A stretch of DNA of 61,866 bases, the filler included, from Candidatus Woesearchaeota archaeon (GTDB taxonomy: Archaea > Nanobdellota > Nanobdellia > Woesearchaeales > GCA-2687795): assembly GCA_030753365.1 (NCBI GenBank). It is 5 parts of 5 records of this genome, joined end to end, with 100 filler letters (N's around TTAATTAATTAA, not from the genome) between each part and the next. Parts side by side here need not be neighbours in the genome. Positions count along the whole stretch, not along the records: positions 29,766 to 45,325 come from JASMCJ010000047.1; 4 more parts are not named here. One strand, given 5' to 3'. A program made the translations under genes and the position numbers. Shown piece after piece: positions 3,788 through 59,474 of this stretch. The notes under the pieces were generated by a model. The model did no database searches. It was not told the origin of the DNA and worked only from the letters and a program-made list of their open reading frames with translations. Position 1 is the first letter of the stretch. Every line of letters starts with the position of its first letter.

Positions 3788-3835
3788 TAGCGCTAATGTC
3801 AAGAAATGAGCAAAGCGAATGACAGACTCTGAGGT

Positions 3836-5787: not shown

Positions 5788-5797
5788 AAACAAAATC

Positions 5798-6751: not shown

Positions 6752-6893
6752 TTTTATAATAGTCTACCTTTTAGTATATATATTTTTATAACATATCTTA
6801 TAAATATTTATCTTTTTGTAAGAATAAAATATTCCAAATATTTATATATTATCATTGTTAGAAAAATTAACTATAAAAAGAGGGTGAATTACT

Positions 6894-13198: not shown

Positions 13199-13298
13199 NN
13201 NNNNNNNNNNNNNNNNNNNNNNNNNNNNNNNNNNNNNNNNNNTTAATTAATTAANNNNNNNNNNNNNNNNNNNNNNNNNNNNNNNNNNNNNNNNNNNN
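13199..13298. other. Artificial contig linker (N-TTAATTAATTAA-N)
   Basis: 100-nt N run containing an all-frame stop linker. Confidence 0.97.
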
Positions 13299-29665: not shown

Positions 29666-29765
29666 NNNNNNNNNNNNNNNNNNNNNNNNNNNNNNNNNNN
29701 NNNNNNNNNTTAATTAATTAANNNNNNNNNNNNNNNNNNNNNNNNNNNNNNNNNNNNNNNNNNNN
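29666..29765. other. Artificial contig linker
   Basis: N run with TTAATTAATTAA. Confidence 0.97.
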
Positions 29766-30165
29766 TTAACTTGCTTAAATGACAATATTTACTTTTGAGC
29801 ATGATAGGGAGATTCCCAATTTGGGTTATGAAACTTTCTCTCTGGACACCATTGGTGTGAGAGCTGATTTCAATAAAGACAGGAGAAGAATAAGTAAGTT
29901 TTCTGAGCCGGGCTTCGATGGGAAAAATATCTCTTTTTGAGCCGTCAGCTTCTATGATTTCTGGTTTTGTTACCCATATCTTGTCAAGCTTTATCTTAAA
30001 ATCATCTACATTATGAGGAATTATTGTTGGCTCTATCTCTTTATTTTCTTCTATGATTGCCTGTAATTCTTTATCAATGAAATTATTAAAAGATTCTATG
30101 TCGGAGCCAACAAAACTATTCTCTTCAAAAAATTTCTTGAGAAGAAGCTTGTGAGGATTGGTCAT
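29766..30165 (-). CDS. rpoB: RNA polymerase subunit B/B'' N-terminus (partial)
   Basis: SFNNF, EARLRKLTYS, IGNLPIMLKS; follows rpoH. Confidence 0.93.
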
Positions 30166-30405
30166 TTATTCTATTACCCCCTTAAATATAATAGCTTCCC
30201 CGGCAGTAGGACTTTCTCTAATGACTTTAATAATATCTCCTGCTTTAACTTTTAATTCTTTAAGAGAAGGATCGTTTTTGAATAAAAAAGGAAGCTCGTT
30301 GAAAGAAATGTTATATTTATCAAAAAGAGCTTGTTTCTCTTGTTCTGTAACTTTTGCATATTTAGGTATTAATATATGCTTTGTAATGTCTACTTTTTCT
30401 TTCAT
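30166..30405 (-). CDS. rpoH: RNA polymerase subunit H (Rpo5)
   Basis: HILIPK, LP...DP, GDIIKVIRESPTAG. Confidence 0.93.
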   Translation of the reverse strand: MKEKVDITKHILIPKYAKVTEQEKQALFDKYNISFNELPFLFKNDPSLKELKVKAGDIIKVIRESPTAGEAIIFKGVIE

Positions 30406-30435
30406 TTAACTGTTTCCCTCGATTAGTATAAAAAA

Positions 30436-30582
30436 TGGGCCGGACGAGATTTTCTTTGTAAAGCTTCGAACTCGCGACCACATCATTACTTTCAGCCTGT
30501 TGAAAGTTCGAAAACTTTCAGTTTTCGTTAAAAGTGATGTGCTCTATTGCCCAAAATGATTTCCAGGCTGAGCTACCGGCCC
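30436..30582 (-). tRNA. tRNA-Lys(UUU) with three introns (D-loop about 15 nt, 37/38 42 nt, T-loop 15 nt)
   Basis: Acceptor GGGCCGG/CCGGCCC, D stem GCTC/GAGC, anticodon stem CATCA/TGATG with CT-TTT-A, BHB helix CTTT/AAAG, T stem GCGAG/CTCGT. Confidence 0.85.
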
Positions 30583-30607
30583 GTGATTGTATAGTATATG
30601 ATAAAAA

Positions 30608-30733
30608 CGCCCTGGCCGGGACTTTCAAATCAAATTTTTGAACTATGATATTTTTTGAACCCGGGTCAAAGCCTAACTGCTGAACCCCTGTTCAGCGACA
30701 GGGCTTTATGCTAGGCCGCTACACTACCAGGGC
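30608..30733 (-). tRNA. tRNA-Asp(GUC) with two introns (37/38 21 nt, 59/60 32 nt)
   Basis: Acceptor GCCCTGG/CCAGGGC, anticodon stem AAGCC/GGCTT with CT-GTC-G, BHB helices CTGT/GCAG and TTCA/TGAA; 73+21+32=126 nt. Confidence 0.9.
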
Positions 30734-30749
30734 ATTAAATGCGATTTTG

Positions 30750-30910
30750 TCAAGAACCACCCGTCAGAGATGGGTGAAATGTAATGGTTCATATGCTTTA
30801 TTATTCCATCCATTGGTGGTTCTTGAGCATGCTCAGAATTTTCCAGTGTTCTGACATCAGAAGCAAGTGGAACTTGCCATTAATCAGAGATATATAATGG
30901 AAAATTCTGA
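30750..30910. ncRNA. Candidate two-hairpin ncRNA upstream of tRNA-Asp
   Basis: Perfect 12-bp (TCAAGAACCACC/GGTGGTTCTTGA) and 13-bp (TCAGAATTTTCCA/TGGAAAATTCTGA) closing stems with internal helices. Confidence 0.4.
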
Positions 30911-31145
30911 CATTTGATAGCATTATCTCTAAACATGGGTTTTTTTGTGTCTAGAGAAAGGTTTTGAACATTAAATGTAGGATTCGCTTTTCATTTATAA
31001 ATGTTGCGTATTTTGGAGCATATTTTAGAGGAGAACTGGATTTTAGTGCGATTTTACCACTACTTTATCACAGGGAATGCCTTTTTTAACTAATATAAGA
31101 GTTTTTCGCAAATAATATGAGGAAAAGATGAAAAAAGAAAAAAAG

Positions 31146-31329
31146 TCCCCACCCCCGGATTTGAACCAGGAACCTATACCGGATTAATTCTTTCGGTGTT
31201 GGCTGGCTCTCTATCATTCCTTGCTTAAACGCATAAGGTCATAGAGCGCATCTTTGGCTCCTTTATAAAGGCACAGCCGAACGCTCTAGCCACTGCTCCT
31301 TGTTATTCACAAGATTGAGCTAGGTGGGG
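31146..31329 (-). tRNA. tRNA-Tyr(GUA) with four introns (15/16, 35/36, 37/38, 43/44)
   Basis: C1:G72 and A73 Tyr identity; acceptor CCCCACC/GGTGGGG; intact T arm; removing 22+19+54+16 nt leaves an exact 73-nt cloverleaf. Confidence 0.8.
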
Positions 31330-31363
31330 AAGGGACTATTTGATTAAAAAGTAGACTTTGTTT

Positions 31364-32164
31364 TTAAACTTTATCAATTTGTTCCTTTTTACGTAGATAT
31401 ACAAATTTATTTGTATTATAAATGCTTTTCAATTTTTTAATGTTTTTTCTTGTTGCAATTTTTAATTCAAATGTTTCTGACTTCTTACTTTTGTATATTT
31501 TTCCAGATGAAATTGTCAGACTTATTAATAATTCTTTTAAACTTCTTATAAATTTTTCTGAGCCAGAATTAATCTTAATCTGATTTGGTTGGATAGAACC
31601 ATCTCCATCGATTACCCCTCTTAAGAAAGCTATTCTTATTTTAATAGAATTATCCATTATTTTCTTAGGAATATCAACTATTAAAGATTTAGGCCCTGCT
31701 GGGATTTCATATTCAGAGATTATAATCTCAGCCAATTTTTTAGAAGATATCCTTATTTCATAATTTGGTTTTTTGTTAAAACCATATCTTCTTGAACTTA
31801 TGCCAGGAGTATAACTGAACAAATGTTGGATTAATTTTAGAATCATTTCCTTTTCTTCAGGGTAACTTGTATAAATTGCAACTTTATAATTTTTAATCTT
31901 TTTGTTGAAATATATATGTCCATCTGTGATTAATAATCCTAAAAAATAAGCAGAATCTTCATTTAAATCCATAAAATTAATCTTTTGGTAATATATTACT
32001 TTATAACCCGCTGATTTCATTAAATTATTCCATGAACCAAACAACTTTCTTGAATAACAATATAAAGTATTATCATCCCTTTTCTTTGGTTTTCTATTTA
32101 ACTTATTCTCTAGAATTTTTACTCTTTTTATTAATTCATTTTTTGAAATTTTTATTTTTTTCAT
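31364..32164 (-). CDS. Free-standing LAGLIDADG homing-endonuclease-like protein
   Basis: Two motifs, YFLGLLITDG and FLRGVIDGDG; N-terminal FGSWNNLM repeat-like motif. Confidence 0.85.
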   Translation of the reverse strand: MKKIKISKNELIKRVKILENKLNRKPKKRDDNTLYCYSRKLFGSWNNLMKSAGYKVIYYQKINFMDLNEDSAYFLGLLITDGHIYFNKKIKNYKVAIYTSYPEEKEMILKLIQHLFSYTPGISSRRYGFNKKPNYEIRISSKKLAEIIISEYEIPAGPKSLIVDIPKKIMDNSIKIRIAFLRGVIDGDGSIQPNQIKINSGSEKFIRSLKELLISLTISSGKIYKSKKSETFELKIATRKNIKKLKSIYNTNKFVYLRKKEQIDKV

Positions 32165-33198
32165 AAAATCGTAGGCTGGATACCCATCCCTTTATGGTTG
32201 GGAGGAAAGCCGTGCCTCCTTTGTGTTTTCTTCGAGAGGCTTGATGAATTAACCTCTGGTTTGTTTAATAGTTTAGTCTTAATACATTTTTCACATCTAT
32301 TTCCAATATATCCAATAAGATTACTATTTTCGTAAATCTGTGTAATCTCACATTGATTACTACACCCTACTCCAAAATAAGTTTTTGTTTCAAATTCTGA
32401 ATTAATCAAATTAAATCCTTTAAAATTAGTAATTTTGGGATGTTCTTCCATAGTTGCGATAGCAACACCTATTGCACCCATTAAATCTGGATTCTTAGGA
32501 ACTAAAACATTATGAGATAATTCTTTTTCAAAACAATATAACAATGCTTTATTCTTAGCTGTAGCACCTTGAAAAACATAGGGTGGTTGTAATTTTATTC
32601 CTTTTCCAAGCATAGCAAAATAATTTCCTATCAATCCACGACAAACACCCATGAGTATATCTGATTTATTCATTCCTTTATTTAATTTTGATACAACAGC
32701 AGACTGACAAAAAACACCACATTTTGACGGTAAAGCTATTTTATTATTTCCCCTTAATGCAATATCCCCAATATCATCTAAATTTATATCCATCCTATTT
32801 GCTATTGATTCTATCATAGCACCAGTTCCCCCCCCACAATCTCTATTCATAACAAAATTAGTAATAGTTTTTCCATCTAATTGAATAAGTTTACAATCTT
32901 CACCACCAATATCAAAGATAGTTTTAACGTCTGGAAACATTGAAGTTGTGGCAATATAATGTGCAATAATTTCAGATTCAATTTTATCCCCTCCAATTAA
33001 TGTTGAAATAAACTCTCTTCCAGAACCAGTTATACCAACACCTTTTATTTTTTTTTCAGTTTTTATATCTTCTAAAACAATTTTAATTGTTTCAATAAGT
33101 CCAAAATTCTTCCGATATGTAGATTTAATAATATTCTTGTTATCATCTAATAATGTTGCTTTCATTGAAACGCTACCACAATCTATCCCAATATACAT
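32161..33198 (-). CDS. Acyl-CoA dehydratase activase (BadF/BadG/BcrA/BcrD ATPase family)
   Basis: GIDCGSVS, DIGGED.K, MNRDCGGGTG, KCGVF, C-terminal Cys cluster. Confidence 0.88.
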   Translation of the reverse strand: MYIGIDCGSVSMKATLLDDNKNIIKSTYRKNFGLIETIKIVLEDIKTEKKIKGVGITGSGREFISTLIGGDKIESEIIAHYIATTSMFPDVKTIFDIGGEDCKLIQLDGKTITNFVMNRDCGGGTGAMIESIANRMDINLDDIGDIALRGNNKIALPSKCGVFCQSAVVSKLNKGMNKSDILMGVCRGLIGNYFAMLGKGIKLQPPYVFQGATAKNKALLYCFEKELSHNVLVPKNPDLMGAIGVAIATMEEHPKITNFKGFNLINSEFETKTYFGVGCSNQCEITQIYENSNLIGYIGNRCEKCIKTKLLNKPEVNSSSLSKKTQRRHGFPPNHKGMGIQPTIL

Positions 33199-34103
33199 TT
33201 TTTCTTCCTCCTTAAAACTGATATAAAAGTTTCTATCCTTGTATCGAATCCTGCTTCAAATCTGTTTTCATCTATAGGGAAACGATAAATAGGTATTTTA
33301 TATTTCTGACCTACCCTATTCATAAGCATTTCAATAGTTGTTTCTGGCATACAACTTAGAGGTAATAAATGTATAATTCCATCAAAATCTTTTTTACAAT
33401 ATTCTATAGAAGAATAAAGACTATATTTACCATGACCTCCTACATCCCCCCATATATAAGGTTTTAGTTCTTTTTTTTCTTTTCTTCTTTCAGAAATATT
33501 ATAATTATGAGTTAGAAAATTAGAAAGTTTTGTTGAAACATCTACAGCTACACCCATATTCTGTAATTTGTGGACAATATTATAATTTATGTATGGGTCT
33601 AAAAGTGTATAAATTTCACCAGTAATTCCAATCTTTAAATCTGCATTTTCATCAAATGGAAAATTCTTTTTTTCCTCTTTTAATATAATTTTATAATATT
33701 TGTATATCTTTTTCGTAACAGTTAATGGGTTTTTCCCACTAAGTTTACAAAAAGAACTTACTACCCCTTTAAAGGTAGGAGGTATATTAATCATTTCGAA
33801 ATTATAACCTAAATCTTTAAGAATTTGTCCAGCAATATTATAATATTGACCTATCCTACATAACGTATTTTGTTCTCCCCACATCATTGTTGTATTAGCC
33901 CCCCTTTCTAAACCATCAATAAAACAGCCCAAAACTACTTTAAACGGAAAACACATCATATCGCTACTATATTTAACCCCCTTTTTAATTATTTCTTGAT
34001 TTATTTGTTTTGTTTTTAAAACATTAATATCTAATTCCTTTAGTAAATCTTCTAATATATCTGTGTAAAATCCCATTCTTGGTATTGTCACGATTCTCTC
34101 CAT
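33183..34103 (-). CDS. CoA-enzyme-activase partner / 2-hydroxyacyl-CoA dehydratase D-component-like protein
   Basis: MCFPFKV, CRIGQY, ITGEIY, DGIIHLLPLSCMPE, TRIETF. Confidence 0.78.
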   Translation of the reverse strand: MERIVTIPRMGFYTDILEDLLKELDINVLKTKQINQEIIKKGVKYSSDMMCFPFKVVLGCFIDGLERGANTTMMWGEQNTLCRIGQYYNIAGQILKDLGYNFEMINIPPTFKGVVSSFCKLSGKNPLTVTKKIYKYYKIILKEEKKNFPFDENADLKIGITGEIYTLLDPYINYNIVHKLQNMGVAVDVSTKLSNFLTHNYNISERRKEKKELKPYIWGDVGGHGKYSLYSSIEYCKKDFDGIIHLLPLSCMPETTIEMLMNRVGQKYKIPIYRFPIDENRFEAGFDTRIETFISVLRRKKKCILG

Positions 34104-34105
34104 TC

Positions 34106-34657
34106 TTAACCTCTTGTAAAATCACCTATCTTCATCTGTCCTTTCAACTCTTTAGGACAGTTATAAACATCATACTCAAACACAGGTTTACCTTCCTGTT
34201 CTGAAATGTATCTCTTAACTTGTTCTTGACTTACATGACCTGCTGAACCACAATAATATCCAGTAGCCCATAATGCTTTGAATCCAGAGCCATAATGATT
34301 CTTGAATCCTAAGTATCTTAGGAAAGGAAAACATCTTCTAAGTTGAATCGAAGTGTTACCCTTGAGTTGATTAACTATCTTAAAAGGTGTTGAAGTTGGT
34401 CTTACACCTACAAATAAATGCAGATGGTCTGGCATTATCTCTAATGCTAATGGGTTAATCTTCATGTTGTAACATTGTCCTTCAATGATTTGTTTTAGCA
34501 CTTCTTTCACCTTGCCTGTTAGTATCTGTTTTCGATACTTTGGTATCCATATAATGTGATAGTTGATGTTAAACTTGCAGTGATGTCCTCGTCTAACAGT
34601 TGCTATCTTTGATTCAATCTTGTATTTTTCTGGATTGAAATGTTTGTATTTAGTCAT
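34106..34657 (-). CDS. tnpA: IS200/IS605 Y1 (HUH) transposase
   Basis: YHIIWIPKYR, PDHLHL (HUH), LWATGYY, VKRYISEQ; ATG 34657 follows GAGGTGG. Confidence 0.95.
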   Translation of the reverse strand: MTKYKHFNPEKYKIESKIATVRRGHHCKFNINYHIIWIPKYRKQILTGKVKEVLKQIIEGQCYNMKINPLALEIMPDHLHLFVGVRPTSTPFKIVNQLKGNTSIQLRRCFPFLRYLGFKNHYGSGFKALWATGYYCGSAGHVSQEQVKRYISEQEGKPVFEYDVYNCPKELKGQMKIGDFTRG

Positions 34658-35006
34658 TGCGACCACCTCAACTTTAAGGTGGTTGCTCGTTTGGTGAGGT
34701 TTTCCGTTTGAGTGGAAGCCCTCTTATAGCTTTCGGATTTTCTCCGAATGATTTAAGTTGGGGCTTCTGCGTGGGAAACCCCACCCTTTAGGGTAATTTA
34801 TTTTGGGAGGAGGTCATTTTCAAACAAATATTTTATTGTGAGACTATGTAAATAATTTCGCTTTAGATGAAATAACAATTTGAAAGTTGAACTTTTCTTA
34901 ATTTGAAATGTATAAACAATTTCTAAATAGTTAATGATATTTTCTAGGTGGGGATATACATAAGAAAATCAAAGAGTTTATAAATATTATTGATTAAATT
35001 GATGAA

Positions 35007-36296
35007 ATGCTTGATATAAACTTTATTAGGGAGAATCCTAAGCTTGTTAAGGAGAATATTAAGAAGAAGTTTCAGAGTGAGAGAGTTAAGAAGGTTGATG
35101 AACTGCTGGAGAAGGATAAGAAGTATAGAGAGTTGTTGCAGAAGTCTGAGAAGCTGAGGGCAGAGAGGAATAATATTACTTCTGAGATTAATTTACTTAA
35201 GAAGCAGGGAGAGGATATTTCTAAGACGGTAAAGAAGGCGAAGGAAATTCCTGACAAAATTAAGAAGATTGAGGATGTTCAAGATAAGCTGAAGGAAGAG
35301 ATTAGAGAGCTTTTATTTGATATTCCTAATATGATTCATAAGTCTGTGCCTATTGGCAAGGATGATAAGGAGAATATTGTTAGAGAGAAAATTGGAGAAC
35401 CTAAGAAGTTAGGCTTTGATGTTAAGAGCCATGTTGAGATTGCTGAGAAGTTAGGTGTTGTTGATTTTGATATTTCTGCTAAGACTTCAGGGAATGGGTT
35501 TTATTATCTTAAAGGTGATTTAGCCTTATTGAATATGGCTTTGGTTAATTTTGCAAGGGATTACATGGTGAAGCAAGGATATGAGTATGTTGAGCCTCCG
35601 CTGATGATTAGAGAGAATGTTCTTAGAGGAGTTTATTCACATGAGGAGATTGAGGAGATGGCTTATAAGATTGAGGATGAAGATTTGTTTTTGATTGCTA
35701 CTTCAGAGCATCCGTTGATTGGGATGTTTATTAACAAGATTATTGATAAGGATGAGTTGCCTATAAAGATTACAGGGTTTTCTTCATGTTTTAGGAAGGA
35801 GATTGGAAGCCATGGCATTGACGAGAAGGGTTTGTTTAGGACGCATCAGTTTAATAAGCAGGAGATGGTTGTGATTTGCGAGCCTGAAGATTCTTACAAA
35901 TTTTATGATGAGATGCTTGGTCATTCTAAAGCAATTTTTAAGAAATTGGGGTTGCCTATTAGGGAGAGAGAGTGTTGTTCAGGTGACCTTGCTGATTTGA
36001 AGGCGAAGTCTGCTGATTTGGAAGCATGGTCTCCCCGTAAAAAGGAGTATTTTGAGATTACTTCCTGCACTAATATGGAGGCTGCGCAGGCGAGAAGGCT
36101 GAATATAAAAGTTACAGATGGGAAGGTTAAGTGGCATGCGCATACTTTGAATAATACAGTGATTGCTACTTCTAGAGCGATGGTTGCTATTCTTGAGAAT
36201 TTTCAGCAGAGGGATGGGAGTGTTAAGATTCCTAAAGTTTTGCAGAGTTATATGGGCGGTAAGGAAAGGATTGAAGTAAAGAAAAAAATTAATTAA
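35007..36296 (+). CDS. serS: Seryl-tRNA synthetase
   Basis: MLDINFIRENP, LIATSEHP, FRKE.GSHG, LFRTHQF, HTLNNT. Confidence 0.97.
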   Translation: MLDINFIRENPKLVKENIKKKFQSERVKKVDELLEKDKKYRELLQKSEKLRAERNNITSEINLLKKQGEDISKTVKKAKEIPDKIKKIEDVQDKLKEEIRELLFDIPNMIHKSVPIGKDDKENIVREKIGEPKKLGFDVKSHVEIAEKLGVVDFDISAKTSGNGFYYLKGDLALLNMALVNFARDYMVKQGYEYVEPPLMIRENVLRGVYSHEEIEEMAYKIEDEDLFLIATSEHPLIGMFINKIIDKDELPIKITGFSSCFRKEIGSHGIDEKGLFRTHQFNKQEMVVICEPEDSYKFYDEMLGHSKAIFKKLGLPIRERECCSGDLADLKAKSADLEAWSPRKKEYFEITSCTNMEAAQARRLNIKVTDGKVKWHAHTLNNTVIATSRAMVAILENFQQRDGSVKIPKVLQSYMGGKERIEVKKKIN

Positions 36297-38490
36297 ATGT
36301 TCTTTCTACAGCAACTTCCATGATAGGGAAGTGGTCCTTGTTCTCCACTTCATAAGGAAGTTTTATTTCGTTGAGCTCTTCTTTGATGTTGTCTAGGTTG
36401 TTCATTTTTATCTTTTTTGCTGAGATTGTGTAGAGGGTGTTGTCCATGTATAATGATCTTCTTACTGCTGATGGCGAACCATAGTAGTAATAGTTGGTGT
36501 CTTCTTCATCGTCTTCGTGAGTTATTGTTCCCTTGACTTCGAAGCCGTCTTCTGGTGTTAGGCCGAATACATAAGCGCCTTGCCAGATTTTGTTTCTGTA
36601 GTATCCTAGTTTGTTGTCAAAGTATCTGTCTTTCATTTCTCTTACAGGGATTACTAAGAGATTCTTTTCTTTGTCAAAGAGGAATGCTTTATGCTCGTTT
36701 AATGCTTCTGAGTCTGTTCCTGATTGTCCTATTTCATAAGTGTCAATTTGGGTTGGATTAGTTACATCGCTTACATCGAATAGTGCTAGTTTTACACCTT
36801 TGGTTGAGATGCCGCCCCATTGGTTTGATTCGGTTTCTTTTCCTATGCCTATGATATGGTTTTCGTCATAAGGGTGGAGGTAGTCTGAATAGCCAGGTAT
36901 TTTTAATTCTCCTAATATTTCAGGATTGCTTGGGTTGGATAGGTCTATTACAAATAAAGGGTCAACTCTTTTGAAGGTTACCATGTATAGCCTGTCTCCT
37001 AAGAATCTTGTTGAATAGATTCTTTCTTCAGGAGCTATGTCTTCTATTTTTCCAACTTGTTCTAGATTTTCGTCTAAGATGTAGACGTTGTTGTACATTG
37101 TGTTGTCTCTTCTGGTGTAGATATATGTTGTGGTTGCTACTCTGAAGTATCCTGCATGCTCGTCCATGGAGAATTGGTTTAATAGATAGCCGTGCACTTC
37201 CCCTTTTATGTCATAGTCTATGTAACCATCATCTATCTTGATTTTATGGATTACAGTTTTTCTTCTTTCTGCTTCGATTTTTGCTTCATAGTCAGTTATT
37301 GCGTTTTCTATTTTTTCAATGAGGGTTAACTTTTCTTTTTCTTCCATGGTGTTGTACATGTCTTCTAAGATTGAAGATATTGTGTCCCATTTTTCATAGG
37401 AAGTTAGTTCGATGTTGTTTCTTATGCTGTTTATTTTGTTTTGGATGTCTAATGGCAGTAGAGGGACTACTACTTTGTAGAATCTGTCTTCGTTGTGCTC
37501 TTTGTAATATGTGTAAGGCAGATTTTTTTGATAAGTGATGTAAATATTGTTTCTTGAGACATAAAGGTTGTTTGAGTAACCCATCATAAAGGTTTTTGCA
37601 CTGATGCTGTCATCACTTTTTATGTTGAAGGATGCGATTGTGTTGAAGTTGTAGTTGTTTTCAGGGTTGTCAAAGTAGTAGATTTCAGGTGAGATGAGCT
37701 TTTCTGAGCTTTCTCTGATTACTGGCATGTCTATTACATTGTTGTAATAGTATACATTTTCGTTTACAATGAAATAGACGTAGTTGCCTATCATTCTTGA
37801 TTCATAATAGTTTCCATTTAGGTTGTAGTCTTTTATTTGTGTTGGGTTGGCTCTGTCAGAGATGTCATAGATGAGCGCGTGAGTTTTTGAGGTGTATCTT
37901 GGCCTTGGAGCAAAGTCGTATTCTGCAAAGACAGGTGTCTGGTCATTTGTTAGAGTGAATATTATCAATCTGTCATCGTTGATGAACATGTTTCTGGTTG
38001 TACCTTTGATTTCTGTTTCTGATAGAATGTCTGCATCTTCGGCTGGGTATGCGTCTATTATTACAAGATTGTTTCCTGTTAAGGTGTAGATGTATTTGTT
38101 GTCGTTTTTTACAATGTCTGCCTCGTCAACGCCTTTGACCTGAACGTTTGTTTGAGAGTAGTCTTCCGCACCTCCTGCTGTGGATGATTTTGCAGCTGGT
38201 GTGCCTAAAGCGGATGCTTCTGAAAAGTCACTTACTGCTGCTTCAACCATCATAGTGGATCTTATTCCACCAGAGTATGCTGAAACATAGTTTGCATTAG
38301 AGGCTGCGTCTTTTAGGAATTCCAAGAGCTCGGTTTTTGATGAAAATTTCTTTAGTTCCTGATTGGTTTCTTTATCTGATAAAATATCTGTCTCTGTATC
38401 ATAATCCACCGGAGAGCAGGATACTAGCAGCACTGCTAGCATTAATAATGATAGTATGTAAAATCTTAGTGTTAGTTTTTGAGGTTTCAT
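36289..38490 (-). CDS. Secreted beta-propeller domain protein (probable lipoprotein)
   Basis: LVSC lipobox-like, YSQTNVQVKGVDEADIVK, LNQFSMDE, ERIYSTRF, GELKIPGYSDYLHP. Confidence 0.88.
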   Translation of the reverse strand: MKPQKLTLRFYILSLLMLAVLLVSCSPVDYDTETDILSDKETNQELKKFSSKTELLEFLKDAASNANYVSAYSGGIRSTMMVEAAVSDFSEASALGTPAAKSSTAGGAEDYSQTNVQVKGVDEADIVKNDNKYIYTLTGNNLVIIDAYPAEDADILSETEIKGTTRNMFINDDRLIIFTLTNDQTPVFAEYDFAPRPRYTSKTHALIYDISDRANPTQIKDYNLNGNYYESRMIGNYVYFIVNENVYYYNNVIDMPVIRESSEKLISPEIYYFDNPENNYNFNTIASFNIKSDDSISAKTFMMGYSNNLYVSRNNIYITYQKNLPYTYYKEHNEDRFYKVVVPLLPLDIQNKINSIRNNIELTSYEKWDTISSILEDMYNTMEEKEKLTLIEKIENAITDYEAKIEAERRKTVIHKIKIDDGYIDYDIKGEVHGYLLNQFSMDEHAGYFRVATTTYIYTRRDNTMYNNVYILDENLEQVGKIEDIAPEERIYSTRFLGDRLYMVTFKRVDPLFVIDLSNPSNPEILGELKIPGYSDYLHPYDENHIIGIGKETESNQWGGISTKGVKLALFDVSDVTNPTQIDTYEIGQSGTDSEALNEHKAFLFDKEKNLLVIPVREMKDRYFDNKLGYYRNKIWQGAYVFGLTPEDGFEVKGTITHEDDEEDTNYYYYGSPSAVRRSLYMDNTLYTISAKKIKMNNLDNIKEELNEIKLPYEVENKDHFPIMEVAVERTFN

Positions 38491-38542
38491 TTGAACATCA
38501 CCTGATTTAATGTATATTGTAGGCTATATAAATAACTGTTTA

Positions 38543-38568
38543 TAGGTTTGAATTGGGTTGAAGTTATT
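38543..38568. promoter_or_regulatory. 26-bp operator-like motif, copy 1
   Basis: TAGGTTTGAATTGGGTTGAAGTTATT; 25/26 identical to 40980-41005; upstream of a minus-strand TATA box. Confidence 0.65.
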
Positions 38569-38645
38569 AATCAAATAAACTGATTGACTATTAAGTAGTA
38601 GTTAAAACCATAAACCTTATAAATGATTAATAGTTCTTTTTCTAT

Positions 38646-40280
38646 ATGGAACTAACTGAATTTATAGAAGATAGAGGAATTACTTCAGAGAGTGTGATAG
38701 ATAGTCTTAGGACTATTGATAGCTGTTTTGAGCAAGAAGAAGCGAAAGTACCACAAAAATTTGTTGTGCCTTATAGAGAGGGTTATTTCTTGTTTCAAGA
38801 GTATTGCGCTATTAAAATCAAAGAGGAGAGAGGAGTTAATTGCTGGGAAGAACTATCTACACCAGTGTTTGGAGAGTATAATATAACATCACAGCATAGG
38901 AAACTGGAGGATACTGTAAAAAGGATTGAGCCTGAATATGAATTTTTTGTATTGACAGAAGAGAAAGTAGAAGGAATCCTTAAAGACAAAGAAGAAAAAA
39001 ATATAGTTTATTTTCCAGAAGGGTTTTTTGATGAAAAGAGAATAGGCAGGGAAGCAGTGTCAAAAAATTATAGTATTCTATTGAATTATATTAAAACAAA
39101 AGAAGGATTATCTTGTTGGGAGGAGTTAACAACTACTATATTATCAGAGAAATATCATTTACCAAGTATTTTTCATAAGTTACCTCAAATTATTGAAAGG
39201 ATTGACCCAGAATATGAGTTAGGCGTATTGATAAAAGAAAAGATGGAAGGTGTATTAGAAAGGCTTAGCAAATTTTCAAAGCATGTGCTTAAATTTCCTT
39301 ATCGTTTTTTGTCAGGAAATTGTTCTTTAAAAGATAATTTAAATATGTTGGAAGAATATATAAGAGAAGAAAACGAATTAGGAAAAGAGGATAAAATTTT
39401 TCCTGAGCATGTTTCAATCATTGCAAATTTTGGCCATATGAATCCGATAGTTGAAAAGCATTTTGGCTTTGAAAGGGATTCGATTGAAAGGGCTTTAATA
39501 AGAAATTCAAATTCTCAGACACATGAATGGTCAAAAGAGGAAGAGGAAAAACTAAGAGATTATTTTGTGAATATTAATAGTGAAGTAGAGAGAGGAGAAT
39601 TCTTTGAAGAGTTTAAAGATGATTTAATTGATGAGTTTAAGGTCAATGGAAGCCAGTTATTATGGAAGATGCAGTATATGAAGTTACTGCCAAAATCCAA
39701 AGGGAATGGACATGAGAATAAGGGAAATAAAAGGAGAATACAAAGAATAAATTTTCCTACGTTTATATGGGAAGCAACAAAGATAGATTACAGACCTGAT
39801 TTCAGAAGGATGTCAGATGAGATTCGTGATTCAAATGAAGGATATCAGCATATTCCAGGGGTTATCTATGAGTCAGCAGATGGCCAACATATTAATGTGT
39901 TATTGCCTGTACAATATGCAGGCATATTTAAAGGAAAGTCTTCAGAGTATAATGACAAAGAAAAAGATGTAATTACAGCGATTGCTCAATATTTATGCAG
40001 GCCTGGTTCATTTGAAGAGGTTGATGTTCAAACAGAATCAGGGGTTTCCACAAAATTTCTTACTCCATGCAGTATATCCAAAAATTTTCTTGATTTACTT
40101 GCGATAGTTCCTGTTATTGATGGAAATAATCAATATATAAGAATGTCTTATAGAAAAAGGATACTTCCAAATCAGGAACTTAAGAGAGTTCCAACACTTA
40201 TGGGAGATAACTTTTCAATCAGCCTGAGTAGGTTTGATGTAAAAGAATATACATTAGAGAATACAGGGTCGCATTCTTGA
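38646..40280 (+). CDS. Hypothetical protein with internal repeats and a Myb/SANT-like segment
   Basis: Duplicated C-W-E-E-L...RI.PEYE...EK.EG.L block; later WSKEEEEKL. Confidence 0.6.
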   Translation: MELTEFIEDRGITSESVIDSLRTIDSCFEQEEAKVPQKFVVPYREGYFLFQEYCAIKIKEERGVNCWEELSTPVFGEYNITSQHRKLEDTVKRIEPEYEFFVLTEEKVEGILKDKEEKNIVYFPEGFFDEKRIGREAVSKNYSILLNYIKTKEGLSCWEELTTTILSEKYHLPSIFHKLPQIIERIDPEYELGVLIKEKMEGVLERLSKFSKHVLKFPYRFLSGNCSLKDNLNMLEEYIREENELGKEDKIFPEHVSIIANFGHMNPIVEKHFGFERDSIERALIRNSNSQTHEWSKEEEEKLRDYFVNINSEVERGEFFEEFKDDLIDEFKVNGSQLLWKMQYMKLLPKSKGNGHENKGNKRRIQRINFPTFIWEATKIDYRPDFRRMSDEIRDSNEGYQHIPGVIYESADGQHINVLLPVQYAGIFKGKSSEYNDKEKDVITAIAQYLCRPGSFEEVDVQTESGVSTKFLTPCSISKNFLDLLAIVPVIDGNNQYIRMSYRKRILPNQELKRVPTLMGDNFSISLSRFDVKEYTLENTGSHS

Positions 40281-40292
40281 ATCCTAGTATAA

Positions 40293-40940
40293 TTATTCTT
40301 TATCTTTTTTTATGCAGCTTATTAAAAGATATATTCCTAATGCGAATACTGCGCCTATTAAGAACCAGAATGCGATGTTGGTTGTTAGGTTAGGCAGTAA
40401 TGATACTGCTTTGTCTGTTATTATTTCTTGTGCTGCTGGAATTGCCTTTTCCATGATGGGAGCACCAGCGCCTACTGCTTGTTCTGCCATTGCTGCTGGA
40501 GCTCTTGCGAGCATTGTGTCTGAAGCTGCTGAATTTTTTCCTGGGAAGTATTTTGAAGCATATTGGATTATGCCTGCGGTTGCAATTGCTGCCAAGCCTA
40601 CTGGAAGGATGCTTCTTAGCTTTTCTGTTATGCCTGTTACTTTCTTTGGTGTTATGATTATGTATTTGTTTGCTAGCTTGTAATGGCTTACTTCTTTGCC
40701 TTTTTTGCTGTAATGAAATTCTTCTGTGATTATAAGATCGGATTCCTTTAACTGTTGGAGATTGTAATGGATTGTTGAGATTGGGATGTTGAGTTCTGTG
40801 GCAAGCTCTGATTCTGTTGAAGTTTCATGCTCTGATAAGTAGTCAAGGATTTTTCTGCATGAGTCGTTGCTTACTATGTTTGCTACTTTTTTTGCTTTTG
40901 AGTCCTCTAATGAAAGTAAGAGGAAATTTTTCTTTGCCAT
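40293..40940 (-). CDS. Membrane-anchored ArsR-type wHTH regulator
   Basis: RKILDYL, SELATELNIPISTIHYNLQQL, YSKKGKEV, then two TM helices. Confidence 0.85.
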   Translation of the reverse strand: MAKKNFLLLSLEDSKAKKVANIVSNDSCRKILDYLSEHETSTESELATELNIPISTIHYNLQQLKESDLIITEEFHYSKKGKEVSHYKLANKYIIITPKKVTGITEKLRSILPVGLAAIATAGIIQYASKYFPGKNSAASDTMLARAPAAMAEQAVGAGAPIMEKAIPAAQEIITDKAVSLLPNLTTNIAFWFLIGAVFALGIYLLISCIKKDKE

Positions 40941-40979
40941 AAGAAGGTAATATGATATATGCTTATAAATAGTTTTCCT

Positions 40980-41005
40980 TAGGTTTGAATTGAGTTGAAG
41001 TTATT
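40980..41005. promoter_or_regulatory. 26-bp operator-like motif, copy 2
   Basis: TAGGTTTGAATTGAGTTGAAGTTATT upstream of the ArsR gene TATA box. Confidence 0.65.
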
Positions 41006-41104
41006 GTTTAATTCTGTTTTTTCTAGAGGTAATAAGTGTCCATTACTACTTTAAAGGCGTTACAAATAGAAAGCTTTAAAAGGCATAAAACGTTCTTATT
41101 AGCT

Positions 41105-41698
41105 ATGAGAGCAAGAAACATAATATTGGTATTAACCTTAATAGGTATAATTATGGCATCTTCTGCATTTGTTTTTATTAAAGGAACAGATAAAGATACT
41201 AATAATATAAAACCATTGAGCATTATTAAATCAAAGGTATCTTCATTATTTTTACAGCAGGAAAACCTTGATAATGAACATTTATCTGAAGAAACAGAAA
41301 CAATTTCTCTGGAAGTTATTCCAGATAAATATAAAGGGTATATAGAGAATGCAGATTCAATTATAGATGAAACAAACAAATTTCTTGAAGACAAAACTCA
41401 ATTTATAGATATTGTAAAAAGTATTGATGAACAAGGCATTAATCTAATTGCAGATGATGTTTCATTTTATGTGGAATTTGATGAAGAAGGGCTTATTGAT
41501 AGTGTTGTTTTAGGGATAAATAATGAGTATGATTCTATAGTTGTTCAGAATGATCTTGATATATTTGTAGAATCTGCATTGAACGCAAAGGAAACATCAG
41601 ATTATATGGATCTTTTGTCAGATGTTGATATTCCTTTGAAGTATTATCTTAAGGTTCCTAAAATTATAAAGGTTGTTATGGATATGCAGAGTTTATAA
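41105..41698 (+). CDS. Hypothetical secreted or membrane-anchored acidic protein
   Basis: N-terminal hydrophobic helix after MRAR; ATG start preferred. Confidence 0.55.
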   Translation: MRARNIILVLTLIGIIMASSAFVFIKGTDKDTNNIKPLSIIKSKVSSLFLQQENLDNEHLSEETETISLEVIPDKYKGYIENADSIIDETNKFLEDKTQFIDIVKSIDEQGINLIADDVSFYVEFDEEGLIDSVVLGINNEYDSIVVQNDLDIFVESALNAKETSDYMDLLSDVDIPLKYYLKVPKIIKVVMDMQSL

Positions 41699-41768
41699 AT
41701 TAAATTCCTAAATTTCTTTTTGAATTAAAACCAAAACCCTTAAAACAATTAAACTAATTCTTTATGGT

Positions 41769-42761
41769 ATGAATATAATTGAGAAAGCTAACAAAGTTTA
41801 TCTGGGGAACTTTAAGCCTGTTACATGGTTTGAGAGGGCTTTGTTCTTTTCATGGTATTGCAAGATTGCTGACTGTAAGTATTGTTATATGAGTACTCAG
41901 CCTAATAAGAATAAAGAGGCTGTGAGGTCAATTGCTTCTATATTAGCTGAGACTATTATCTGCAAGAAGTTGGGATGGAAGATAGGGTTTATTTCTTCAG
42001 GGCATAATGCGTATTCTACTGAGAAGCTTTTGCTTTTGATGAAGAATATTAATAAGATTACTGGGAAGAAAGTGTGGCTTAATATTGGGGTTTTGGAGGA
42101 AGATGAGCTTACGCTGTTTTCTCCTTATATTGAGGGTGTTGTGGGAGCGATTGAGACTATTAATCCTAAATTGCATGATGAATTGTGCCCGTCTAAGCCT
42201 GTTGAGCCTTTTACTAAGATGTTTGAGGTTAGTAGAAAATTAGGAATTAAGAATGCTATGACTATTATTACAGGGTTGGGGGAGACTATTAAGGATTTTG
42301 ATTTGCTTAAGGAGTTTATTGAGAAGTATGATATTGAGAAGATTCATATTTATGGGCTTAATCCGCAGAAGGGTACAATGTTTGAGGATGTGAAGCCGCC
42401 TACTGCGGAGTATCAGAGCGAGTGGATTGCCAGGACTAGGATTGCTTTCCCTAAGATTGATATTCAGGCAGGCATTTGGGATGATAAGGTGGAGAATGTT
42501 TCTGCTTTGCTGGAAGCAGGAGCTAATAGCATTAGTAAGTTTCCCGCGATTAGAAAGTTTAATTCTAAGGAAGCGTTGAGGATAGAAGAGGAGAGTGAGA
42601 AAGCTGGGAGAGTGTTTGATGGTTCTCTGGTAAAACTGCCTAAGGAAGAGGAGTTTAGCAAGGAGTTGGAGAAAATACCAAACAATTTAAAAAGAGAGGT
42701 TGATATAAAATTAATAAAGTATATTAAATTGATGAAGAAGAGAAAGAGTAAAGATAAATAA
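41769..42761 (+). CDS. Radical SAM protein (biotin-synthase-like archaeal family)
   Basis: CKIADCKYC cluster motif, GAIET, ITGLGET, AGAN. Confidence 0.85.
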   Translation: MNIIEKANKVYLGNFKPVTWFERALFFSWYCKIADCKYCYMSTQPNKNKEAVRSIASILAETIICKKLGWKIGFISSGHNAYSTEKLLLLMKNINKITGKKVWLNIGVLEEDELTLFSPYIEGVVGAIETINPKLHDELCPSKPVEPFTKMFEVSRKLGIKNAMTIITGLGETIKDFDLLKEFIEKYDIEKIHIYGLNPQKGTMFEDVKPPTAEYQSEWIARTRIAFPKIDIQAGIWDDKVENVSALLEAGANSISKFPAIRKFNSKEALRIEEESEKAGRVFDGSLVKLPKEEEFSKELEKIPNNLKREVDIKLIKYIKLMKKRKSKDK

Positions 42762-42771
42762 TAAGAAAAAG

Positions 42772-43386
42772 GTGAGAAAGAGAATGGTTGTTTTTCATAA
42801 ATTACAGAGAGTGAGTGTTTTAGTTGATGTGCAGAATTTGTATTATTCTGGGAAGCATTTGTATAATTCAAAGGTTAATTTCAAGGCTGTGCTTAAAGAA
42901 GCTGTGAAAGGAAGAGGGCTTATTAGGGCTATTGCTTATGTTATTAGAGCTGATGTTAAAGAGGAGAATAATTTCTTTGATGCTTTAGAAATGATGGGTT
43001 ATGAGATTAAGGCAAAGGATTTGCAGGTTTTCTATGGCGGTGCTAAGAAGGGTGATTGGGATATTGGGATTGCAATGGATGCTATTGAGCTTGCGCCTAA
43101 GACTGATACTATTGTGATTGTTAGCGGTGATGGAGATTTTGTTGCATTGGTGGAGCATCTGAAGAGAGGGATGGGATGCAGGGTCGAAGCTATGGCTTTT
43201 GGAAGGAGCGCATCGTCAATGCTTAAGGAAGCTGTTGATATGTTTTCTGATATGGATAAGGATAAGAAGAAGTATCTTATACCTTCTTCTTATAGAAATA
43301 ATTCTTCTCAAAGTAGGACTACAAGCACAACAAAGGCTATTAGTAAAACACCTACAAGGGCAGTGAGTGCAGTGCAGAAGAAGTAG
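42772..43386 (+). CDS. NYN domain protein (LabA/DUF88, PIN-like)
   Basis: VDVQNLY, KGDWDIGIAMD, SGDGDF. Confidence 0.9.
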   Translation: MRKRMVVFHKLQRVSVLVDVQNLYYSGKHLYNSKVNFKAVLKEAVKGRGLIRAIAYVIRADVKEENNFFDALEMMGYEIKAKDLQVFYGGAKKGDWDIGIAMDAIELAPKTDTIVIVSGDGDFVALVEHLKRGMGCRVEAMAFGRSASSMLKEAVDMFSDMDKDKKKYLIPSSYRNNSSQSRTTSTTKAISKTPTRAVSAVQKK

Positions 43387-43441
43387 AGTTGTTTTTGGAG
43401 AGAAAGGTTTTTTAAATTTCTTTGTTTTTATAAATTTTAAA

Positions 43442-44092
43442 ATGGATAAGATTGAGCAGATTATAAGTATTCTAAAAAGGGATTATCCTAAATTCAGAAC
43501 TCCGATTGTGACAGAATTTGCAGAAAGAACAAGAGACCCTTTCAAGGTTCTGATTTCTTGTTTGTTGAGTTTGAGGACGAAGGATGAGACTACTGCAAAG
43601 GCTTCTAAGAGATTGTTTGAATTAGGGGAAAGTCCTGAAGAGATGGTTAAGTTGAGTGAGGAGAGGATTAGGGATGCTATTTATCCTGTTGGGTTTTATA
43701 AGACAAAAGCGAAGAGGATTAAAGAGATTTGTAAGAGGTTGATTGAGGAGTATGAGAGCAAGGTTCCTGATACTATTGATGAATTGTTGAAGTTTAAGGG
43801 GGTTGGGAGGAAGACTGCTAATCTTGTGGTGACACAGGGTTATGGGAAGTTAGGGATTTGTGTTGATACTCATGTACATAGGATTTCTAATAGATTAGGA
43901 CTGGTTAAGACTAAGACTCCTGAGAAGACTGAGTTTGCTCTTAGAGAATTGTTGCCTAAGGAGTATTGGATTGTTTATAATGATTTATTAGTTAGTTATG
44001 GGCAGAATGTTTGTGTTCCGATTTCACCTTTTTGTTCTAAGTGCAGTATTAGGGAATACTGTGAGAGAGTTGGAGTGGAGAGAAGTAGGTAA
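43442..44092 (+). CDS. nth: Endonuclease III
   Basis: LLSLRTKD, HhH GVGRKTAN, VDTHVHR, C-x6-C-x2-C-x5-C. Confidence 0.95.
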   Translation: MDKIEQIISILKRDYPKFRTPIVTEFAERTRDPFKVLISCLLSLRTKDETTAKASKRLFELGESPEEMVKLSEERIRDAIYPVGFYKTKAKRIKEICKRLIEEYESKVPDTIDELLKFKGVGRKTANLVVTQGYGKLGICVDTHVHRISNRLGLVKTKTPEKTEFALRELLPKEYWIVYNDLLVSYGQNVCVPISPFCSKCSIREYCERVGVERSR

Positions 44093-44134
44093 TAGAAAGT
44101 TTTATTTATTTCTAAGATTGTAAGATATGCTAAA

Positions 44135-44971
44135 ATGACTTTCAACAACCTATTATTCGGCACTGCAGGGATTCCTATTGGTACGCCTGACAGGAATACA
44201 TTGAATGGAGTTGCTTTTGTAAGGAAGCTTGGGCTGGATGTTATGGAGCTTGAGTTTGTGAGGATGATTAACATAAGTAAACAAGTTGCTCCTGATGTTA
44301 AGGAGGTTGCCAAGAAGAATGATGTTACATTGACTTGCCATGCGCCTTATTATATTAATCTTAGCTCGAATGAGAAAGCTAAGGCAAGGGCTAGTGTTGG
44401 CAGGATTCTTAATTCTGCAAGGATTGCTAAGCTTTGCGGAGCGTTTTCTGTGTGCTTTCATGCTGCGTTTTATCAGAAGAGTGAGCCTGAAAAGGTTTAT
44501 GGTAATGTGAAGGATGCTATGGAAGAGATTATTGAGACTTTGAAGGATGAAGGTAATGATATTTGGATTAGGCCTGAGACGACTGGAAAGGCTACTCAGT
44601 TTGGGTCTTTGAAGGAGATTCTTAATTTAAGTGCAGAGCTTGATAATGTTATGCCTTGTATTGATTTTTCTCATCTTTGCGCAAGAGAGAATGGGAAGGT
44701 TAATTCTTATTCTGAGTTTTCTAAGGTTTTGGAAGAGGTTGAGAAGGTGTTGGGGAGGAAAGGGTTGGAGAATATGCATGCGCATATTTCAGGGATTGAG
44801 TATGGAGAAAAGGGAGAGAGAAAACATCTTGTGCTTAAGGATTCTGAGTTTAGATATGAAGAGTTGTTGAAAGCGTTGAAGGAGTTTAAAGTGAAGGGTG
44901 TGGTTATTTGTGAGAGCCCTAATATTGAAGAGGATGCTTTGCTGATGAAGAAAACTTTTGAAAGGTTTTAA
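44135..44971 (+). CDS. Endonuclease IV / AP endonuclease 2 TIM barrel
   Basis: HAPYYINL, ETTGK, DFSH, HAHISG, ICESP. Confidence 0.9.
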   Translation: MTFNNLLFGTAGIPIGTPDRNTLNGVAFVRKLGLDVMELEFVRMINISKQVAPDVKEVAKKNDVTLTCHAPYYINLSSNEKAKARASVGRILNSARIAKLCGAFSVCFHAAFYQKSEPEKVYGNVKDAMEEIIETLKDEGNDIWIRPETTGKATQFGSLKEILNLSAELDNVMPCIDFSHLCARENGKVNSYSEFSKVLEEVEKVLGRKGLENMHAHISGIEYGEKGERKHLVLKDSEFRYEELLKALKEFKVKGVVICESPNIEEDALLMKKTFERF

Positions 44972-44998
44972 ATAAAAGTTTATTCTAGATTAAGGATT

Positions 44999-45325
44999 AT
45001 GAGTAAAAGAAGAGGTCAGATACAGGTTCAGTTTAATTGGATTTTTGTGCTTATTGTAGGAGGTTTAATCCTCTTGTTTTTTCTTGGTGTTGTGAGGACA
45101 CAGAAGAAATTGTCAGATACAAAGATTTCTGCAACGATTTCGACTGACCTTAGAGCTATTCTTAGCGGTGTTGAGGTGAGTACGCAGACTGCTGCTTTGA
45201 TTGATATTCCTAAGACAGAGATTGATTTTAATTGTGAGGGATATAGTGTAGGAGGATTGGCAGGAATGAGGCCAACGGCTAGCTTTTCCCCTAATGTTAT
45301 CAAAGGGAATAGGCTTATGTCATGG
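44999..45325 (+). CDS. Class III signal peptide (pilin-like) protein, partial
   Basis: MSKRRG|QIQVQFNWIFVLIVGG; runs into the gap. Confidence 0.7.
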
Positions 45326-45425
45326 NNNNNNNNNNNNNNNNNNNNNNNNNNNNNNNNNNNNNNNNNNNNTTAATTAATTAANNNNNNNNNNNNNNNNNNN
45401 NNNNNNNNNNNNNNNNNNNNNNNNN
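45326..45425. other. Artificial contig linker
   Basis: N run with TTAATTAATTAA. Confidence 0.97.
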
Positions 45426-59374: not shown

Positions 59375-59474
59375 NNNNNNNNNNNNNNNNNNNNNNNNNN
59401 NNNNNNNNNNNNNNNNNNTTAATTAATTAANNNNNNNNNNNNNNNNNNNNNNNNNNNNNNNNNNNNNNNNNNNN
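59375..59474. other. Artificial contig linker
   Basis: N run with TTAATTAATTAA. Confidence 0.97.

Follow-up and report, generated by a model that had tools for sequence, protein, structure and literature searches.

The stretch of DNA analyzed here, called the window, comprises 61,866 nucleotides (nt) of a Woesearchaeota genome. Our subject is an interval of 2653 nt (2.65 kb) at positions 32165-34817, a putative transposon of the IS200/IS605 type whose interior holds two enzyme genes next to the transposase gene. The source genome (G000) is a 0.9-Mb metagenome-assembled genome (MAG) of a DPANN archaeon, in 78 contigs and 94.5% complete. Five of these contigs (C44, C46, C47, C49 and C55) are joined in the window by spacers of N at 13199-13298, 29666-29765, 45326-45425 and 59375-59474, and features are not readable across the spacers. 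The element lies wholly within contig C47 (window 29766-45325). The stretch is present in 20 run rows from 15 studies, which cover seawater, marine and hydrothermal-vent metagenomes.

Three co-oriented genes on the minus strand fill the interval. The first is tnpA (34106-34666, 186 aa), which encodes a Y1/HUH transposase and has a GTG start, the ATG at 34657 being the likelier start. It is followed after 2 nt by a DUF2229/HGD-D-like gene of 306 aa (33183-34103, cargo gene 1), which is overlapped by 16 nt by an activase open reading frame (ORF) of 345 aa (32161-33198, cargo gene 2) that is of the BcrAD/BadFG type and HgdC-like. An earlier interpretation of this locus, made from the sequence alone and called the sequence-only reading below, had described this arrangement of two genes co-oriented with tnpA, with a 2-nt gap and then an overlap, and the arrangement is as claimed; when the sequence was re-read, all the features it had listed were in place. 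It had also identified an Fe-S activase ATPase, a dehydratase-like partner and tnpA, and family profiles match these identities (BcrAD_BadFG E 3.9e-37, DUF2229 E 1.8e-12 and Y1_Tnp, PF01797, E 6.5e-33, respectively). It was right that there is no tnpB: zero further ORFs of at least 50 aa lie inside the element besides the three genes. Its description of the cargo as AT-rich holds insofar as GC content is 0.26-0.32, but this composition is host-like; that of tnpA is 0.34-0.37. The usual content of IS200/IS605 elements, in a descriptive sense, is tnpA and/or tnpB/iscB only, and the present element departs from it with two enzyme genes inside its ends.

The transposase is well supported as a member of its family, with a score of 126.9 bits against a cut-off of 55 for NF033573. 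Its HUH motif (DHLHLF) and its tyrosine helix (GYYCGSAG) align to the solved structures 2EC2, 2F4F and 2A6M, so that the catalytic motif is intact. It also has a C-terminal extension of about 25 aa, which is typical of its clade.

The ends of the element are asymmetric and have hairpins, and no terminal inverted repeats were found at them, as is expected for IS200/IS605. All end features are given on the plus strand. The left end (LE, 32165-32225) consists of a 14-nt leader, a candidate guide tetranucleotide GATA at 32179-32182 (+15 to +18 of the element), an imperfect hairpin at 32183-32202 (CCCATCC, loop CTTTAT, GGTTGGG, with one T.T mismatch) and a conserved 3' block that extends to about 32225. 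The tetranucleotide TCAT, the target and left cleavage tetranucleotide, lies just outside at 32161-32164. The right end (RE), together with the region upstream of tnpA, occupies 34667-34817. Within it, a candidate guide GAAA (34775-34778) is followed by an outer CCC (34779-34781), a 5-bp stem with a TTTA loop (34782-34795), a spacer, a GGG (34805-34807) and the last 10 nt, which end in TCAT (34814-34817). The sequence-only reading had GAAA preceding the RE hairpin; its position is correct, but it is not directly adjacent to the covarying 5-bp stem, since CCC intervenes, and GAAA abuts the foot of the hairpin only if the outer CCC/GGG pairing is counted. A 21-nt motif is common to both ends in direct orientation with 81% identity, and occurs 3 times in the 0.9-Mb genome, compared with 0 occurrences of a reversed control.

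Comparison with related elements (introduced below) indicates that both hairpins are conserved as structures. Across relatives, the LE stem is 85% paired, and 3 of its 7 pairs show compensatory changes (alignment A2). In an alignment of nine right ends, with TTTA or TTCA loops, 98% of the cells of the inner RE stem are paired and compensatory changes occur in 4 of the 5 pairs (alignment A3). The covariation scores of the LE and of the RE stems were each reached by 0 of 500 shuffles. The support for the LE hairpin comes from this covariation and not from folding energy, as the LE folded alone is indistinguishable from shuffles (z -0.88).

An empty site had been predicted, in which TTTTTCAT is joined directly to TTTCAAAC. 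We looked for it in Logan contigs of four runs from four studies, aligned to window 30900-36300, and found it in contigs of two of the runs (X6 and X17), which belong to two studies. These contigs join 32160 to 34814 with a 4-nt ambiguity, which is equivalent to joining 32164 to 34818, and the 2653 nt that are skipped are the exact length of the element. The word depth of the empty form was 3.7 in X6, versus 11.9 for the filled form, and 5.5 in X17, versus about 5. Contigs of X6 stop at 32164 and at 34814, which is how a presence/absence polymorphism shows in a de Bruijn graph. The filled form is also well represented: its left junction (32164/32165) is bridged by contig pieces of X6 and X20, its right junction (34817/34818) by one X20 piece and two short X6 pieces, and a separate public assembly (L028) has 99.9% identity over 34804-30913.

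A second insertion with the same ends and different flanks, which the sequence-only reading had proposed to look for, exists in G001, a MAG of the same genus as G000 that is 75% complete. This copy contains both cargo genes, with 80% nt identity to window 32248-34168. The block starts after another TCAT with sequence that is alignable to the LE, and finishes with an alignable RE that itself ends in TCAT. It is flanked by two small membrane-protein genes, not by the LAGLIDADG gene and serS that flank the element in G000. A search of G001 gave no TnpA match, and about 60 nt of the tnpA 3' end are left. The same arrangement is repeated at 99.96% identity in a public contig (L029). The corresponding site in G000 is on contig C65, where homologs of the two genes flanking the G001 copy (84% and 79% aa identity) are directly adjacent, and the contig continues uninterrupted across the same TCAT, without insertion or duplication. 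Filled and empty forms are thus available for both sites, and in both the insertion is specific to the tetranucleotide and leaves no target duplication.

Of 400 other genomes in a sample of the phylum, 14 encode relatives of this TnpA with 62-80% identity, and most of these genomes are of the same order. By pattern search, an RE lies next to the tnpA start in 8 of the 9 full-length relatives, and the ninth (L036) is divergent. In three copies in G102, the flanks diverge right after the terminal T[CT]AT. Examination of 12 loci that encode related TnpAs revealed the same LE in 9, located 1.0-4.5 kb from the RE and always beyond the 3' end of tnpA. Five of these LEs came from 7 long loci, in a scan for T[CT]AT followed downstream by a GC-rich hairpin whose loop is of the TTTA type, the two misses being contigs of 2.4-2.7 kb that end too soon, and four came from 5 further loci in which the conserved leader pattern was used. 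The first patterns used for a distal LE in relatives, which were over-strict, and a search for a second RE-like copy gave no matches and were later superseded. Neither end was found in L073 (a G102:C13 fragment), a pattern match at L054 1766 proved to be coding sequence, and the G038 copies (L007, L014, L057 and L058) are uninformative on limits, as their contigs stop before any LE. The LE is strongly conserved throughout in alignment A2, including leader, guide, 7-bp stem and 3' block, and it is therefore the conserved left end of this TnpA clade; the concern that the left hairpin might be an unrelated remnant is thus removed.

The tetranucleotides 5' of the hairpins likely act as guides that read the cleavage sites, judging from how guide and target sequences vary together. 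The LE guide is AATA with flank TTAT in 9 of 9 relatives, and GATA with flank TCAT in the window copy and in G001. In other words, base 1 of the guide corresponds to base 2 of the target, A with T and G with C. This G/C switch of guide and target counts as a single event, given that the window and G001 copies form one lineage. On the right, the guide GAAA occurs with a terminal TCAT in 9 elements. The right-end guide of IS608 is GAAT with TCAA, in which a first guide base G goes with a target TC (GAAT had 0 occurrences in the text that was searched). The distance from the left cut to the hairpin foot is 18 nt in our element, and that from the outer foot to the right cut is 10 nt. For IS608, PMC3201880 gives 19 nt and 10 nt for these two distances, and AAAG/TTAC as a guide/target pair, in which a first guide base A likewise goes with a target TT.

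We consider it very likely that 32165-34817 is a complete peel-and-paste transposon of the IS200/IS605 type with a two-gene cargo inside the transposing unit, in place of tnpB. The sequence-only reading had proposed a single-strand-type transposon that mobilizes an enzyme module, and the empty site, the second insertion and the conserved ends support this, while the single-strand route itself is modeled on IS608. By this analogy, a TnpA dimer would bind both subterminal hairpins when the plus strand is single-stranded, and would cut 3' of the flanking TCAT (between 32164 and 32165) and 3' of the terminal TCAT (between 34817 and 34818), with the cleavage sites presumably read by GATA and GAAA, respectively. 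The donor would then be sealed and a single-strand circle released, which would be pasted 3' of another TCAT without target duplication. We take the plus strand to be the active one because only on this strand is the tetranucleotide outside on the left and inside on the right. The cargo is probably transcribed together with tnpA from a promoter beside the RE, since its genes are co-oriented with tnpA and tightly packed behind it.

Several observations weigh against this interpretation, and some of them favor an alternative in which the unit transposed in the past and the window copy is now a fixed or decaying fossil. In that case, the empty form would be an older allele in co-occurring strains and not an excision product. 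The window copy has one mismatch in each stem, namely the T.T mismatch of the LE and a C.A pair at the foot of the RE stem, where relatives pair, and these two mismatches may impair it. The outer CCC/GGG of the RE is invariant across the aligned right ends and hence lacks support from covariation, and three right ends (G323:C115, G323:C18 and G149:C33) end in TTAT even though their guide is GAAA, which misfits a simple guide rule. The shorter side of the empty-site joint is only 26 nt, below the 30 nt that the alignment tool takes as safe, although in two studies its position coincides exactly with the predicted ends. An RE-LE circle junction was found in none of the contigs of the four runs, but such contigs are hardly able to show one. 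There is a single copy per genome, and only one full copy (tnpA and cargo) was found anywhere among the genome and metagenome contigs. The cargo genes of G000 and G001 have a synonymous divergence (dS) above 1, and are about as diverged as the flanks (84% nt identity); the two known insertions are therefore old events. Additional signs of decay are that the C-terminus of the activase is frameshifted into the LE, that the G001 copy lacks tnpA and has lost 2 nt of the LE stem, and that contigs C43 and C22 of G000 hold remnants. On the other hand, tnpA is intact with its catalytic motifs, both ends are complete, and the same samples contain the filled and the empty form side by side, at similar depth. 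We therefore regard a fossil as rather unlikely, while giving it real weight.

Other explanations would deny the transposon its cargo or its mechanism. If the activase genes were native to the locus and a tnpA-only insertion sequence (IS) had landed beside them, with an unrelated remnant as the left hairpin, then the host-like GC content of the cargo and the existence of solo end remnants in G000 would be readily explained. The sequence-only reading had itself named relatives with the activase genes and without hairpin ends as evidence that would count against it. Such a case was encountered in part: in one relative (G235/L027), the pair (79% aa identity) sits amid ordinary genes with no tnpA or hairpin ends. 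This relative came from a search for the cargo pair that gave 2 loci in genome contigs and 3 in metagenome contigs, of which one is the present population, two are those of G001 and two are without transposon ends (L027 was inspected at its junctions, and L030 was not). The case shows that the pair exists also as ordinary chromosomal genes, not that the window copy is immobile. As to the reciprocal empty site, a search of G001 detected neither serS nor the LAGLIDADG flank nor the right flank, which is uninformative given that G001 is 75% complete. However, native genes are contradicted by the empty form, which misses tnpA and both cargo genes together and is cut exactly at the two ends, by the comparison of G001 with C65, in which the cargo and both ends occupy another site that is empty in G000, and by the relatives, in 9 of whose loci the same LE lies beyond other cargo. 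Moreover, the 2-nt gap between tnpA and the next gene leaves no room for an end. We thus find this explanation extremely improbable. A different route of movement is scarcely more plausible, i.e., a classical transposase acting in trans with a 4-bp duplication of TCAT, or slippage at TCAT microhomology, with the Y1 gene as a bystander. TCAT is indeed on both sides, and a 4-bp duplication is indistinguishable by sequence alone from the IS200/IS605 pattern. Against it, there are no terminal inverted repeats, most relatives have TTAT as left flank versus TCAT as right terminus, so there is no duplication, and the asymmetric IS608-type hairpin ends are always linked to this TnpA clade. A complete transposon with its own cargo thus remains our preferred interpretation.

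This transposon has the testable defining features of IS200/IS605, i.e., a Y1 transposase, hairpin ends and tetranucleotide-specific insertion; what sets it apart is its gene content and the location of tnpA. It resembles IS608 (ISHp608 of Helicobacter pylori) and ISDra2 in its Y1/HUH TnpA (2A6M, E 3.7e-16; 2VJV, E about 3e-16), in having subterminal imperfect hairpins instead of inverted repeats, and in inserting 3' of a fixed tetranucleotide without duplication, with an RE that ends in its own tetranucleotide. Unlike in these elements, there is no tnpB; tnpA is beside the RE and reads towards the LE, a bottom-strand layout like that of IS605; 1-4 kb of unrelated cargo lie between tnpA and the LE; the hairpins of the two ends have different loops and stem lengths; and TnpA has its C-terminal extension. 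The closest solved TnpAs are those of Sulfolobus tokodaii (2EC2, E 1.3e-26) and Sulfolobus solfataricus (2F4F, E 3.1e-23), which match residues 27-160 with the HUH motif and the tyrosine helix kept. These are proteins of 133-136 aa, and we know of no cargo in their elements. Palindrome-associated transposable elements (PATEs) and derivatives that, like repetitive extragenic palindromes (REPs), lack tnpA are similar to the G001 copy, to G226:C38 and to the C43 and C22 remnants, all of which keep ends without tnpA. However, PATEs are not known to carry genes, and the G001 derivative retains two protein genes under selection, with a ratio of non-synonymous to synonymous substitution rates (dN/dS) of about 0.08. 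Passenger genes unrelated to transposition are also enclosed by transporter IS (tIS) of the DDE families and by IS91/ISCR elements and Helitrons, whose chemistry and ends differ. In contrast to these, both ends here are the family's own, and no end-skipping is needed.

The cargo pair is a compact member of the superfamily of ATP-driven iron-sulfur reductases and dehydratases, as judged from profiles and a structural model. The activase scores 178 bits with the acyl-CoA dehydratase activase family TIGR00241 (cut-off 125), and aligns over residues 3-250 to HgdC (1HUX, E 3.4e-34) with both [4Fe-4S]-bridging cysteines kept; 7YYL chain E matches at 4.6e-26. In addition, it has a C-terminal tail with four cysteines. 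The last approximately 33 codons of its ORF are a frameshifted read-through across the LE: the versions in G001 and L027 stop about 30 codons earlier, and homology to relatives ends near 32250-32285. For the 306-aa protein, 742 homologs of similar length were found at E<=1e-5, many of which are also annotated HGD-D. An AlphaFold model made with 57 sequences has a predicted local distance difference test score (pLDDT) of 92.7. Foldseek matches this model, with E-values of 3e-9 to 6e-7 and TM-scores of about 0.5, to 3O3M, 8S02, 9G87 and 6ENO, and its probability is 1.00 for 3O3M, 9G87, 7YZM, 6ENO and 8S02. The matched folds are those of 2-hydroxyisocaproyl-CoA dehydratase, of the BzdNO/MbdON subunits of benzoyl-CoA reductase and of the double-cubane protein DCCP. 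A search of the DUF2229 profile against PDB sequences gave nothing below E 0.24. C51, C82 and C251 of the 306-aa protein are invariant in the 57 sequences.

The pair therefore resembles HadBC/HadI, HgdAB/HgdC, the class I benzoyl-CoA reductases and DCCP/DCCP-R in combining an HgdC-type activase, which has both cluster cysteines, with a subunit of the HadBC/BzdNO/DCCP fold, which has invariant cysteines. It differs from these systems in having one catalytic subunit of 306 aa versus two of 375-440 aa, in TM-scores of only about 0.5, and in the cysteine tail of the activase. The activase is 82% identical in aa to that of G001 with a dN/dS of 0.083, and the DUF2229 gene has a dN/dS of 0.076; from these values, we conclude that selection maintains the cargo even after the loss of tnpA, as in G001. 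Our literature search found no paper that names both "DUF2229" and "activase".

The relatives carry other kinds of cargo between the same ends. In three of them, the parts of a diversity-generating retroelement (DGR) lie between the LE and tnpA: a target gene with a variable region (VR), a template repeat (TR) and an RVT_1 reverse transcriptase. These elements are in G102:C13 (3164 nt, L054 6361-9524), G109:C7 (L055 5943 to about 9100) and G149:C6 (2933 nt, L056 oriented 6060-8992, with a split reverse transcriptase). Differences between TR and VR fall on coding-strand A at 19 of 21 and at 13 of 13 positions, and these are true DGRs. The same order of tnpA and DGR occurs at contig ends in G038 and in G102:C6; loci noted for their DGRs include the G038 copies L007 and L014, and L048. 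A TATA-like block between tnpA and the DGR target gene is conserved across genomes. The element of G041:C14 (1699 nt) encodes a MUG113/T5orf172 protein (MUG113 nuclease), and that of G192:C7 (3092 nt) two uncharacterized proteins and a winged helix-turn-helix (wHTH) protein. Methylases are found in G323:C18 (N6_N4_Mtase; 4494 nt, L069 oriented 3653-8146) and G323:C4 (Eco57I type, with Eco57I/N6_Mtase/TaqI_C; 4088 nt, L072 4446-8533). In addition, a tnpA copy in G323:C115 (L033) is beside methylase-like and HNH-like ORFs, which were identified by reading translations only. Two copies, G149:C33 (2111 nt) and G226:C38 (1044 nt), have undergone decay or deletion.

In comparisons with genomes of other families (G235, G041, G102 and G192), identity is 78-80% for TnpA and 79% for the DUF2229 protein, but only 45-49% for serS; the transposase and its cargo are far closer than serS, which indicates horizontal spread. 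It is possible, although we stop a little short of favoring it, that elements of this TnpA clade serve Woesearchaeota, and perhaps DPANN archaea as a whole, as a general gene shuttle. Such a shuttle, with conserved ends and a re-targetable guide (AATA/TTAT or GATA/TCAT), would move whole cassettes between families without TnpB for retention, the cargo would be kept by selection after loss of the transposase, and the process would be a main route by which accessory genes are gained. The cassettes in question are DGRs, restriction-modification genes, nucleases and an ATP-driven iron-sulfur enzyme.

The element is a natural IS200/IS605 member with an enzyme module, and its filled and empty sites define the unit exactly. 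Because relatives with the same ends hold DGRs and restriction-modification genes, it appears to belong to a clade of cargo-carrying single-strand transposons in Woesearchaeota. This natural set, of 1.0-4.5 kb, could inform on how much DNA peel-and-paste can move, offers a natural switch of guide and target, and is a concrete vehicle for DPANN gene flow. Previous work portrays the IS200/IS605 family as the simplest of insertion sequences, with genes only for transposition and its control (PMC8612924), and the accessory genes mentioned are tnpB/iscB and Arc (bioRxiv 10.64898/2026.09.24.754181). According to a 2019 survey, passenger-gene transposons were undetected in archaea (PMC6563490). A study of cyanobacteria places IS200/IS605 transposases near DGR targets and defines no element (PMC7517822). 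Our literature search, which did not extend to most subscription journals or to the texts of ISfinder and TnPedia, turned up no account of IS200/IS605 elements with such cargo.

Some features around the insertion sites deserve mention. The gene to the left of the element (31364-32164, minus strand) is free-standing, resembles LAGLIDADG/HNH_repeat homing endonucleases and starts exactly at the target TCAT, whose CAT is its start codon. The insertion pushes the upstream region of this gene 2.65 kb away, and the ATG of this gene overlaps the TGA of the activase ORF. The TCAT targeted in G001 corresponds to an ATGA in which the stop codon of one gene overlaps the start codon of another. On C65 of G000, a MITE-like insert (resembling miniature inverted-repeat transposable elements) of about 160 nt with short inverted termini (about 7625-7785) is 30 nt from the empty TCAT site and interrupts the homolog of the 76-aa membrane gene of G001. 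L027 is CAZDZV010000009.1 (G235); its NCBI title reads Methanosarcinales, yet the genome is classed in the order of G000, and the title is probably wrong. Scans around the element found no tRNA, and an Rfam scan of 29766-37000 gave no match at E<=0.1.

The remaining observations concern RNA or DNA structures within the element, and end remnants elsewhere. Upstream of tnpA, 34693-34785 forms a long plus-strand stem (-20.9 kcal/mol, z -3.07, with 0 of 200 shuffles as good), and may be regulatory or a piece of the RE; relatives have alignable blocks at the corresponding place. Population variants occur in the stems of the ends, namely A>T at 34783 (at half depth in X6, and in X17) and C>T at 32189 (in X20), and both sites are close to contig ends. 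A hairpin of 5-7 bp at 34137-34161 lies in the last 25 codons of tnpA. Its stem includes a pair between the third positions of a Cys and a Gly codon, which 7 of 9 relatives have as T-A or C-G and the other 2 as G.T or C.A. The hairpin is also kept in the tnpA remnants of G001 and C43. This covarying hairpin, within the 3' coding end of tnpA, had been considered as the LE of tnpA-only relatives, and this idea was dropped once distal LEs were found. The C43 remnant (about 4156-4388) consists of about 90 nt of the tnpA 3' end fused to an RE of the longer type seen in G001, ending in TCAT, and its stem GAC/GTC is compensatory relative to that of the window. The other remnant in G000 is a solo hybrid hairpin at 2830-2850 of C22, between two KaiC-like ORFs.

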